Source: Eledone cirrhosa (taxonomy: Eukaryota). Taken from it: a stretch of 64,000 nucleotides of DNA. A program made the position numbers and the translations under genes. Shown piece after piece: positions 34,022-64,000 of this stretch. How positions within the stretch are numbered: position 1 is the first letter of the stretch; the number at the start of each line of letters is the position of its first letter. The stretch is from positions 243,102,001 to 243,166,000 of the forward strand of contig OZ024742.1 of assembly GCA_964016885.1 (NCBI GenBank), written 5' to 3'. A model generated the notes under the pieces. It was not told the DNA's origin. It made no database searches and worked only from the letters and a program-made list of their open reading frames with translations.

Positions 34022-34076
34022 ACTGCCTGAAGAGGTCACAGCCAAAGCTGGCTGTCACTGAAATATATATAGCAGT
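34022..34076 (+). ncRNA. Type I hammerhead ribozyme motif
   Basis: actgc-CTGAAGA-ggtcacagcc aaagct ggctgtcact-GAAA-tatat-ATA-gcagt, then AATAAA. Confidence 0.85.
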
Positions 34077-57931: not shown

Positions 57932-58500
57932 CAGGGGTCCCCAACCATCGAGCCGCTGACCGGTACCGGTCCCTGCATCATTTGCTACCGGGCCGCAAAA
58001 AAATAATTAACTTGTTTCAATTTATATAATAGATGTATTGAATATTGGACTTTAATTTAAAAAGATTTGTTGAAATATTTAATATTTATATACGCAATAC
58101 ACCTTTTCTTCCCTTTAATAAATCGCTCTTTTTTTATTTTTGCTCTCTCTCTCTCTCTCTTTATTAGGGCGGAGGATTGGCAGTATCGGTAGGGTGTCGG
58201 ACGCTATGCTTTTCAGCATAGAGTTACGGCCCTTTATGATCTGAGTTCAAATCCCGCCGAGGTTAACTTTGCCCTTTCATCCTTACGGGGTCGGTAAAAT
58301 AAAGTACCAGTCAAGCACTGGGGTCGATTTAATCGACTTGCCCCTCCTCCCAAATTGCTGGCCTTTTACCTATGTAAGAAACCATTATTGCTCTCTTCAT
58401 CGAAATGTACTTAAATAACACATATGTGCAACTAGCGGTCCGCGGAAAGATTGTCCGACACCAAGCCGGTCCGTGGTATAAGAAAGGTTGGAGGCCACTG
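57932..58500. mobile_element. hAT (Charlie-like) MITE containing a SINE A insertion (58167-58390)
   Basis: TIR CAGGGGTCCCCAACC / GGTTGGAGGCCACTG; perfect 8-bp TSD caatacag. Confidence 0.85.
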
Positions 58501-59530: not shown

Positions 59531-59539
<9 letters not shown>

Positions 59540-59905
59540 TTCAAAATATTAACAAAATAGATATTCTTGTGATCAATTATATTTTATTATACATATTTCA
59601 GAGGTACTGAGTTAAGGTTAACAGTACGTCTTCATCAGATAAAATAAAATGATACATGACATACCCTGACATAGTAGATGGTTAAGATTCAGTCATGGTA
59701 GTCATGACTGAATCTTAACCATCTGTGTGTGTACTACCATGACTGAATCTTAACCATCTACTATGTCAGGGTATGTCATGTATCATTTTATTTTATCTGA
59801 TGAGGACGTACTGTTAAACTTAACTCAGTACCTCTGAAATATGTATAATAAAATATAATTGATCACAAGAATATCTATTTTGTTAATATTTTGAATTAAT
59901 ATTAA
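59531..59905. mobile_element. Palindromic element with two outward-facing hammerheads (59582-59644 -, 59791-59853 +)
   Basis: ~170-bp arms; ttttat-CTGATGA-ggacgtactg..cagtacctct-GAAA-tatgt-ATA-ataaaa. Confidence 0.8.
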
Positions 59906-60029
59906 TAACTCTGGAAAACCTAATTGTTGAGTGCTTCCAACCTATTGTAAAACTCATTCTTTGATGTATTCATTGAACCTTGTTTAACTCTTATATATAT
60001 ATATATACAAATATAAATATAAATATAAA

Positions 60030-60826
60030 TTAGCGAGAATCGTTTTCAGCTCAGGAATTAACGAAAATCAACGTCCGATATGTGTGGCAAGCGCTCGATG
60101 AATCATATGAATCAGAGCTACAACATACGTTAAGGGCTAAACACACTGAGATGATGGTTAAACATATCATCCGCACAGCCAAAACAAACGACCAAGTAAT
60201 TCGGGTCAAACAATAAAAATATATGTGTTGATACTTTCCCGGACCCTGGACTGATGGTAAAATCCAGTATTGGTTTCTGCGACTCCAAAATCAGGTACTG
60301 TCCGCCTACATAAAGAATGTTGGGCTTCTGGTGAGATGATGAACAAGGAAGTCGTGTTACCAACGGGTTTTGCTCCAAGATGCTATAGATAGTGTGGCTA
60401 TTACTGACCCCTCGTGGGATTCAGCAAGGGAGGCAAGACCTCTATTAAGCGAATGATTCAGTTGTGTAATATTGCGAGAATGCAAAATATCACAAATCGA
60501 ATAAAGCTCTCGACAGAATGGTTAAATATAACAGAGCTATTCAACAGTCAATATAAGTAACTGAAAAAATCAATAAAATTAACTGCTCAATAGCTAGACT
60601 CTGGAGATTAATACAAATATAAATTAACGAGAATCGTTTTCAGCTCAGGAATTAACGAAAATCAACGTCCGATATGTGTGGCAAGCGCTCGATGAATCAT
60701 ATGAATCAGAGCTACAACATACGTTAAGGGCCAAACACACTGAGATGATGGTTAAACATATCATCCGCACAGCCAAAACAAACGACCAAGTAATTCGGGT
60801 CAAACAATAAAAATATATGTGTTGAT
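60030..60826. repeat. Partial tandem duplication: ~200-bp direct repeats at 60030-60232 and 60625-60826
   Basis: Near-identical sequence, both ends abut (TA)n. Confidence 0.85.
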
Positions 60827-60830
60827 ATAC

Positions 60831-60861
<31 letters not shown>

Positions 60862-60890
60862 AAATCAGAGACGATAGCGAAGCGAATGAC

Positions 60891-60974
<84 letters not shown>

Positions 60975-60991
60975 GTATATATATGTATATA

Positions 60992-61067
<76 letters not shown>

Positions 61068-61170
61068 TAACAGATTAAAGTTTAAGCAAAGAATCGGTGT
61101 TTTCACCCTTAACGAGATCTTCTGAAACTGTCGAGCCCTCTTTGGATTTTAGTCTTCAAATTTATTATTA

Positions 61171-61218: not shown

Positions 61219-61407
61219 TGGGGCGGTGGATTGGCAGTATCGGTAGAGGGTCGGACGCCATGCTTTCCAGCATAGTTACGTTCCTTTACGGTCTGAGTTC
61301 AAATCCCGCCGAGGTTGACTGTGCCTTTCATCCTTACGGGGTCGATAAAATAAAGTACCAGTAATGCACTGGGTAATTGCTGGCCTTGTACCTAAAGTAG
61401 AAACAAT

Positions 61408-61410
<3 letters not shown>
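61219..61410 (+). mobile_element. SINE family A copy
   Basis: Full length. Confidence 0.85.
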
Positions 61411-61441
<31 letters not shown>

Positions 61442-61580
61442 AAATAATGAAACGAAATTAAATTTCGTTTCGTTTGTAACTCACTTTTGTATGACTGACG
61501 CTTAAACAATTAAGTTAAAAAGAAAAAGCATATAACGATATGTGCTTTTACAATTCTCCAGAAAGGCCGGTAGATAGGTA

Positions 61581-61625
61581 AATATTGCTGATGAGTTGTA
61601 ACAACAACGAAACTAGTTCAATATT
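61581..61625 (+). ncRNA. Type I hammerhead ribozyme (copy 1)
   Basis: aatattg-CTGATGA-gttgt aaca acaac-GAAAC-ta-GTT-caatatt; 7-bp stem I. Confidence 0.85.
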
Positions 61626-62047
61626 CCTTGTCTGGCTTTCTGGAGAATAGAGGAAAGGTGTTTCCTCGAAAACCAGTATGACTATAAAAACCGGTTTGTC
61701 TGTGTGTTTACATACAGAATAGCTGGGTTACTCACAGTAAAGTAACCAGTGAAAGACTTGTTACATCTACATATGTATACGTGTGTGTATTCATATGCAC
61801 ACTAGTACTTCAGTATGCATATGTAGATGTACATTTTTAACTTAATTGTTTAAGCGTCAGTCATACAAAAGTGAGTTACAAACGAAACGAAATTTAATTT
61901 CGTTTCATTATTTGTTTTTATCGTCTCCGCTGAACCGGTGCGTACTCACACTCTATGCAAATTAGTCTGCCCACTACTAATTTTCATAGAAAAAGCATAT
62001 AACGATATGTGCTTTTACAATTCTCCAGAAGGGCCGGTAGATAGGTA

Positions 62048-62092
62048 AATATTGCTGATGAGTTGTAACAACAACGAAACTAGTTCAATATT
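62048..62092 (+). ncRNA. Type I hammerhead ribozyme (copy 2)
   Basis: Identical to copy 1. Confidence 0.85.
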
Positions 62093-62444
62093 CCTTGTCT
62101 GGCTTTCTGGAGAATAGAGGAAAGGTGTTTCCTCGAAAACCAGTATGACTCTAAAAACCGGTTTGTCTGTGTGTTTACATACAGAATAGCTGGGTTACTC
62201 ACAGTAAAGTAACCAGTGAAAGACTTGTTACATCTACATATGTATACGTGTGTGTATTCATATGCACACTAGTATTTCAGTATGCATATGTAGATGTACA
62301 TTTTTAACTTAATTGTTTATATATATATATATATATAGTAATAATAATAAATATATATATAATAATAATAATAAATTTGAAGACTAAAATCCAAAGAGGG
62401 CTCGATAGTTTCAGAAGATCCCGTTAAGGGTGAAAGCAGCGATT

Positions 62445-62594
<150 letters not shown>

Positions 62595-63207
62595 CATTCG
62601 CTTCACTATCGTCTCGGATTTTTTTTGTTTTGTTTTGTTTTCTTCCCTGATAAATATTCGTCTTAGTTATCAACGCACTGTGGTGAGATGTGCTGTCTTT
62701 AATGCGTCAAAACATCAGTGACTCACGGCAGACACCCGATGAGCAAGAATTGTCCTTATGTTTGTGTTTCTCTTACGTTTTCTAAATGATATTTATTAAT
62801 AACCACACAACGTTTTGTCACTTTTAATTCATATATATATATATGTGCGTGTGTGTGTGTGCGTGTACAAATGTGTGTGTGTGTATGTGTGTGTGTGTAT
62901 GTGTGTGTGTGTGTGTACATATATATATATATTGATTTGACAGGTATCAATAATACCATTGATATCAAAAGATCTTTGTCCAGAGCCTGACAATTCAGTC
63001 ACTCAATGAAACCTTTATGTTTACTCAGAATAAATGAACCATAAAAAATGTGTATTAATGTGTATATTTATGAAAAAATAGTTATTTCAAAGAAACCCTG
63101 TTCTTTAAAATCCCTTGGCCAATGACCTCTACTCATCCCCAAATATCACCACCTTTCCTAACCACCAGAAAGGATATAAATACAACTGTTTTAAAAGGGT
63201 AGTTGGA

Positions 63208-63545: not shown

Positions 63546-63640
63546 ATAACATACATACATACATACATACATACATACATACATACATACATACATACAT
63601 ACATACATACATACATACATACATACATACATACATACAT
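63546..63640. repeat. (CATA)n microsatellite
   Basis: Directly visible. Confidence 0.95.
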
Positions 63641-63649
63641 AAATCATTC

Positions 63650-64000
63650 AAAAAGCCTAGTATGGAGTTCCGACAAGCTTTTGACATCCCACCTTGAAGG
63701 ATATCTCTCAATACAGGAACAAGAAATCCCTATCAAATATCTGCTACACAAAAGAGGAGGGCCATCAGTCGACAATAAATGTAGGCTTTGTAAAACAAAG
63801 ATGGAAGATGTTAGCCATATTGTTGCCAACTGCGAAAGAATATTGTCTCGCTACTACCTCCTTATGAGAAACGATGTGATAACTAGAACCATCTGGAACG
63901 CACTTAGGAAAACAAAATTAAAAACAAATGAGGAGGAATATGTTGAGATAGATGGCACTAAACAATACTGGTAGAACCTGAAAATAAAAACTGCCACCAA
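63650..64000 (+). mobile_element. R4/Dong-like RLE LINE fragment (zinc-knuckle region), runs off the window
   Basis: EGYL.IQEQEI..KY..CRLC....EDVSHIVANC....YY..R.D.I. Confidence 0.75.

Follow-up and report, generated by a model that had tools for sequence, protein, structure and literature searches.

Two hammerhead motifs lie in tandem in the 64,000-nt stretch of DNA analysed here (the window), and a sequence-only reading had taken them to define a 467-nt monomer, a retrozyme or circular-RNA candidate that a transcript of the locus would release. The analysis concerns the locus, its family and the way in which such an RNA may have been copied into DNA. Papers are cited below for the portions of their text that were consulted.

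Anatomy of the locus

The CTGATGA cores of the two hammerheads, at 61588 and 62055, are identical and 467 nt apart, as had been claimed (Table 1). Each hammerhead has a helix II of 5 bp and a helix I of 7 bp with a long extension; the earlier description of them as perfectly paired holds for these two helices but fails for helix III, which consists of A-U and C-G only, round a 2-nt loop. The predicted cleavage triplet (GUU at both), the cuts placed after 61618 and 62085 and the palindrome AACTAGTT all agreed with that reading. The 8-nt palindrome at helix III forms a predicted self-duplex of -6.6 kcal/mol, and a weak helix III of this type is said to require a dimer (PMC4209133; PMC7229834). 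The seventh base after the cut is U, and in the tetraloop of helix II base 4 is A; both match the loop contact described in PMC11875169. Helices I and II were present in the free fold of the 799-nt right arm. Both hammerheads matched the Rfam model Hammerhead_HH9 (RF02275) over its full length at 38.6 bits (E 2.4e-7), below the gathering score of 52, and a scan of the whole window at gathering thresholds gave no match; Rfam miRNA matches were dismissed as noise from hairpins and the microsatellite.

The near-identical direct repeat, reported as 331 bp, was found to span 332 nt (61521-61852 and 61988-62319, offset 467), with three mismatches, at 61564, 61684 and 61808. The inverted copy that precedes it had been put at 84 bp, a fair estimate: BLAST gave 88 nt with 1 mismatch, the outer 4 nt merging into (TA)n. 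This left arm copies 61834-61921, comprising the last 19 nt of the repeat and 69 nt of the spacer; it contains no hammerhead and overlaps the right arm by 1 nt, at 61521. Site A, a putative start of reverse transcription, was read through at its first occurrence in this copy and used at 62319. No target-site duplication could be resolved at the locus, the flanks being (TA)n microsatellite. The longest ORF inside the monomer is 40 aa, and it holds no RT or GIY-YIG ORF.

Table 1. Features of the insertion, in window coordinates.
Feature	Position	Strand	Basis or remark
(TA)n target, left side, after SINE 3' end	61412..61437	.	sequence
Left arm, monomer 314-401, outer end at site B	61434..61521	-	alignment
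Right arm, 1.7 monomers (1-467, then 1-332), outer end at site A	61521..62319	+	
Hammerhead 1 with extended helix I, predicted cut after 61618	61553..61648	+	
Hammerhead 1, helix I	61581-61587/61619-61625	+	
Hammerhead 1, CUGAUGA	61588-61594	+	
Hammerhead 1, helix II, loop AACA	61595-61608	+	
Hammerhead 1, GAAA	61609-61612	+	
Hammerhead 1, palindromic helix III	61612-61617	+	
Predicted 467-nt monomer between the two cuts	61619..62085	+	non-coding, ~36% GC, strongly self-paired
Site A (monomer 325-333), 3' of long hairpin	61838..61852	+	outer-end pile-up
69-nt 'tail' between sites A and B, with hairpin	61853..61921	+	
Site B (monomer 395-402), at end of 69-nt tail	to 61921	+	outer-end pile-up
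Octamer ATGCAAAT within hairpin	61955..61962	+	kept in 424-nt sister family
Hammerhead 2, core same as hammerhead 1, predicted cut after 62085	62020..62115	+	
(TA)n target, right side	62318..62337	.	sequence

The insertion has several repetitive neighbours. The SINE-like repeat to its left (61221-61409) has a B-box-like motif and a very high copy number, with a second copy near 58167-58387. A larger inverted repeat (60866-61170 and 62345-62620) encloses this SINE and the retrozyme. Within each half lies a very small two-armed remnant, derived from the untranslated end of a Hydra-like family of Penelope-like elements (PLEs; L246/L252); both remnants have the same inner junction, and the larger repeat may be a local inverted duplication or a foldback element. 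At 59531-59992 lies a second two-armed hammerhead element with 172-nt inverted arms. Its hammerhead is of the minimal PLE type, and its right arm carries an 88-nt tail; a first look gave ~2,000 genome candidates, and 20 loci contained no linked ORF. A partial tandem with a 594-nt period and an AT-rich end follows at 60013-60827 (221-nt repeat at 98%), with no CTGANGA core on either strand. Another minimal hammerhead of PLE type is found at 34027, and 63640-64000 resembles what we take to be the zinc-knuckle end of a non-LTR retrotransposon.

The family and its hammerheads

The genome copy-number search that had been proposed as a check returned 5,123 exact copies of the 36-nt hammerhead core in the 3.0-Gb genome, as compared with 0 for the reversed pattern; the family has spread to thousands of sites. 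Given these counts and the fold of the 467-nt monomer (z = -8.8), the hammerheads are not a chance occurrence. A second, non-overlapping core variant with GUC added 3,131 exact copies, giving at least 8,254 hammerhead copies genome-wide and ~2,500 insertion ends; B-end junctions numbered 2,517, and a narrow pattern found 416 exact A-end junctions. These thousands of copies had been missed by the sequence-only reading, as had the nature of the inverted copy as a second arm and the existence of arrays of 20 or more monomers. The recent insertion that it proposed is borne out by the 3-4 differences in 467 nt that separate this copy from its nearest relatives.

For detailed comparison, 190 loci drawn by similarity, by each end pattern and by the core pattern were parsed into 164 distinct insertions, 145 of them complete. 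The counts that follow describe this pattern-chosen sample, mostly from one contig (C1), rather than a census, and are slightly inflated, because L118/L119 and two copies in L177 look like segmental duplicates. The family has a GC content of 36% and consists of thousands of dispersed copies, from dimers to multimers; 154 of 271 arms exceed one monomer. Subfamilies near the window copy have GUU, the more distant ones GUC. A 424-nt sister family (L186, L361) shares the order of hairpins, the octamer and the ACTAGT palindrome and has the triplet GUA; a 65% homolog beside two PLE loci proved to be this sister retrozyme. A further hammerhead repeat has a 310-nt unit (L248).

Within the family the catalytic core is strongly conserved. 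CUGAUGA deviated in 5 of 2,927 calls and GAAAC in 7 of 2,118, as compared with 7,664 of 210,000 for the whole monomer; at 0.2-0.3% against 3.7%, the core is ~15-fold more conserved. Across 84 distinct extended hammerheads, 98.5% of cells were paired, and one helix II pair is U-A in 52 rows and A-U in the other 32. This is the one clear compensatory swap in helix II; another occurs in the helix I extension, so that independent events are few, and the count of covarying pairs in the 84 hammerheads does not exceed that of a shuffle. The low deviation of the core and the compensatory pair in helix II show selection acting on the hammerhead. A non-G rule applies to the base that precedes the cut, and the family stays within it: among 425 calls, U occurred in 313, C in 110 and G in 2, and the sister family has A. 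GUU is a weaker cleavage triplet than GUC; our search of the literature on GUU cleavage yielded no usable rate figure.

Insertion footprint and probable RNA template

Head-to-head insertions, with the left arm on the minus strand and the right arm on the plus strand, made up 102 of the 164 distinct insertions. Across the insertions, outer ends piled up at two places 69 nt apart: 106 at monomer positions 325-333 (site A) and 133 at 395-402 (site B), 124 of the latter at position 401, with 10 elsewhere. Among the 94 complete two-armed copies, 85 paired an A end with a B end, 1 was A+A, none was B+B and 8 had one end elsewhere; a further 49 complete copies were one-armed. Alternating AT abutted 165 of the 180 A/B ends of complete two-armed copies. 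Inner ends were scattered, the arms overlapping by at least 1 nt in 56 cases, abutting in 10 and leaving a gap in 36, and near-palindromic inner junctions (within 8 nt) were confined to 9 of 102, mostly at intrinsic hairpins. The window copy is a typical insertion of this kind, B on the left and A on the right. A 10-nt motif common to sites A and B looked like a start signal but is not proposed as one, as the 424-nt sister family keeps only its last few bases along with the hairpin layout.

The same rule was found in a control PLE of this genome, an intact, young element with a 777-aa frame: its two end sites bound a 39-nt tail, and in all 10 two-armed copies among 20 regions each site was used once. 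Penelope-like elements are described as having an inverted arm, a tail often at one end only and (TA)n targets (PMC8557442). In vitro, the Poseidon PLE PAc uses two internal RT start sites that bound the tail, and cuts and extends both strands; a dimer is predicted (PMC11167929). The strictness of the A+B pairing suggests coupling between the two priming events, for which two subunits on one RNA would be the simplest arrangement.

Potential partners are abundant. From tens of thousands of PLE candidates, three families with long open frames were sampled, presumably Hydra-like, Neptune-like and Penelope/Poseidon-like, to judge by their motifs; all insert in (TA)n. Their loci contained no homology to the monomer sequence, and the monomer end motifs were not clearly shared by the three families. 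Pfam detected RVT_1 and GIY-YIG only, in two of the three, and nothing in the Hydra-like proteins; one Hydra-like element with an open 824-aa frame and no Pfam match is itself two-armed (L241:2499-4973). The control PLE is the Neptune-like one, which is very young, with a 4.8-kb period (L333-L352, e.g. G000:C4:119555000-119564900). Its 777-aa RT/endonuclease frame is near-identical in 150 scored copies and is preceded by an apparent further coding stretch, and a pattern search found no hammerhead in it.

Dispersed (AT)n insertions with fixed ends, and the A+B rule itself, require a priming mechanism. This is difficult to reconcile with satellite-like amplification at the DNA level, by unequal exchange and gene conversion, in which the hammerheads would be relics of Penelope terminal repeats, as are the compensatory change and the conservation of the core. 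Li et al. 2026 do propose local tandem amplification from PLE termini. A very long array on C5 shows the higher-order repeats typical of local amplification: ~50 kb of the 467-nt unit beside a decayed PLE (L010-L020, G000:C5:87.62-87.67 Mb), which likely expanded at the DNA level after insertion. The related concern, raised in the sequence-only reading, that the duplication here is an assembly artefact was not upheld, since the locus has private variants and an anatomy shared with 85 other copies, and the family occurs in contigs of six independent sequencing runs (none of the pieces among the matches listed spans the window locus or its inner junction). We regard either origin as most improbable.

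What was copied can be judged from the variants. Monomers diverged by 0.8% within insertions and 4.5% between them, and disagreement within insertions showed no excess at family-polymorphic columns (59 of 6,920, against 448 of 40,033 elsewhere). Both arms shared rare variants across up to 21 monomers; 25 such variants were common to all monomers of both arms, and three A>G changes were common to 19 monomers. In the window copy, both arms carry a rare variant at monomer position 387 that is present in 1 of 158 insertions, and there are 3 differences between its two full monomer copies, two of them being alleles found elsewhere in the family.

In one rival account, the same element is copied by the same Penelope-type enzyme, but from a long linear multimer that a homogeneous master array yields by transcription and that stays uncut, the hammerhead being slow or acting at another stage. 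On a linear multimer as heterogeneous as the donors, the same turn of both arms would share variants that other turns lack. In a test over 22,161 sites in 58 insertions, variants confined to the same turn of both arms numbered 19, falling to 5 when indel-zone columns, where gap placement is strand-dependent, were dropped; the out-of-register counterpart gave 10 and then 7. Some 70 would be expected from a linear multimer if it had aged as much as these copies have, although the test is weak if the donors were very young, homogeneous arrays. Arrays of dozens of monomers are indeed available as potential donors, the weak GUU triplet is that of the most frequent variant, an uncut RNA would account just as well for read-through of the cut site, and PAc uses unprocessed RNA in vitro, its hammerhead requiring protein (PMC11167929). 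Nevertheless, besides the missing in-register excess, the 25 arm-wide rare variants would demand many donors, each homogeneous, which itself requires a monomer bottleneck, and the catalytic core is strongly conserved. An uncut multimer is, in our view, a rather unlikely template.

A cut linear monomer, on which the RT would jump from the 5' end to the 3' end to make multimers, accounts for the haplotype purity and the shared variants no less well than a circle. Arm stops are also modestly enriched immediately 3' of the cut (27 in positions 95-121 as compared with 15 expected, in an interval picked post hoc), which fits some linear cut templates. Against this, the cut site was crossed 429 times with 9 stops within 95-104 and no inserted bases at 92-105, and jumps so precise and scarless are unlikely to be repeated. 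We consider jumping on a linear monomer quite improbable. Among the parsed insertions, arm ends were also inspected for a sharp peak at the cut site, and none was found. Taken together, the haplotype purity, the shared variants, the missing in-register excess and the seamless passage of the cut site favour a template that is monomer-length and seamlessly closed. Shared rare variants included 26 A>G and 8 T>C (p 0.002 per variant), reduced to 13 and 8 when counted per insertion (p 0.38); as this latter excess is not significant, RNA editing of the template is suggestive only. Two insertions had clustered A>G changes at the octamer.

The likely explanation of these data is a young, high-copy non-LTR retrozyme that inserts as two arms in (AT)n and is copied, most plausibly by a PLE enzyme, from a single RNA, probably a circle. 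A multi-copy locus would be transcribed, neighbouring hammerheads would pair through the ACUAGU palindrome and cut, and the monomer so released would be closed by a host ligase. A Penelope-type GIY-YIG/RT protein, to judge by the footprint, would then make a double-strand cut in an (AT)n tract, and the two DNA 3' ends so exposed would serve as primers on the sense RNA, with site A as the start for one and site B for the other. Both reactions may circle the same template, for anything from a fraction of a turn to tens of turns, before the resulting pair of cDNAs is joined wherever they happen to share a short overlap. We also lean, if only slightly, towards a more specific form of this, in which a PLE dimer loads once on a circular ribozyme RNA, with one subunit per start site, and performs rolling-circle reverse transcription from both ends of the break, so that the circle's edits appear in every unit of both arms. 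Counted against the likely explanation are the weak GUU triplet, the failure of 8 of 9 Xenopus retrozyme dimers to cleave in vitro (10.64898/2026.07.22.740005) and the dispensability of the PAc hammerhead for insertion in vitro (PMC11167929).

Fate of the window copy and comparison with known systems

The octamer, a candidate promoter part, lies upstream in 75 of 80 arms with two hammerheads. In the window copy the plus-strand arm takes up the monomer at position 1, past the octamer region, and for this reason the release of a circular 467-nt RNA from the locus, as the sequence-only reading had envisaged, is doubtful. If the octamer is a promoter, only read-through from outside would cover both hammerheads. 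Because it is absent upstream of the first hammerhead, the window copy may be a dead end, better seen as a product than as a source. In newt satellite 2, the unit reportedly has an snRNA-type promoter similar to the host snRNA proximal promoter; alignment of the monomer with three host U2 upstream regions was not significant (p 0.05-0.36). No RNA record carrying the monomer was among the matches listed.

The class of element is known, and mobilisation of animal retrozymes by PLEs, on circular templates, has so far been proposed without insertion-level evidence in the consulted text of PMC7229834 and 10.64898/2026.07.22.740005. The family described here offers a countable footprint, with one arm per start site, a single haplotype and seamless multimers. 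This makes it testable, in the existing in vitro PLE system, whether a PLE RT can travel repeatedly round an RNA circle as it copies, and also how the inverted arms and tails of PLEs arise. The GUU lineage spread more recently than the GUC lineage, which offers a way to ask whether the element gains from cutting more slowly. If true, the reading of a dimer on a circle would settle both how animal retrozymes spread and why PLE insertions have an inverted arm with a one-ended tail.

A literature search limited to sources outside subscription journals and supplements listed no paper that deals with retrozymes of cephalopods or with an A+B rule. Metazoan non-LTR retrozymes (coral, mussel, axolotl, newt satellite 2) share with this element a type I hammerhead in each short, non-coding tandem unit, a GC content under 50%, thousands of copies and a highly self-paired predicted circle (PMC7229834). 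The weak palindromic helix III recalls axolotl HHR_Amex1 and newt, and the 467-nt monomer compares with ranges of 150-450 (PMC7229834) and 51-972 (10.64898/2026.07.22.740005). Unlike in those elements, as far as these two sources describe them, GUU is dominant here; nor do the portions consulted give any description of insertions with two arms, of fixed pairs of ends or of variants shared along whole arms, the word 'inverted' having no occurrence in PMC7229834.

Endonuclease-bearing PLEs likewise have partial tandems, an inverted 5'-truncated arm and a one-ended tail, AT-rich or (TA)n targets, two internal start sites and a type I hammerhead (PMC8557442, PMC3846280, PMC11167929, PMC4209133). 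As these sources describe PLEs, our element differs in having no ORF, a canonical rather than minimal hammerhead, a tail of 69 nt rather than 30-40 and arms of up to tens of identical units. Its mostly non-palindromic inner junctions do not fit antisense self-priming (PMC3846280) as a general rule.

More distant systems differ further. In plant LTR retrozymes, type III hammerheads lie in LTRs and insertion gives a 4-bp duplication, whereas the hammerhead here is type I and no short duplication can be resolved. Hammerhead_HH9, the best ribozyme match, is an isolated conserved amniote motif, not a mobile repeat. In L1 twin priming, both target ends prime on one RNA, giving an inverted 5' part; here, in contrast, both starts are fixed, the arms overlap in template coordinates, and each arm can exceed many monomers. 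We conclude that, by sequence criteria, the element is a metazoan non-LTR retrozyme, as the candidate status given to it earlier had implied, and neither an autonomous PLE nor a plant LTR retrozyme.
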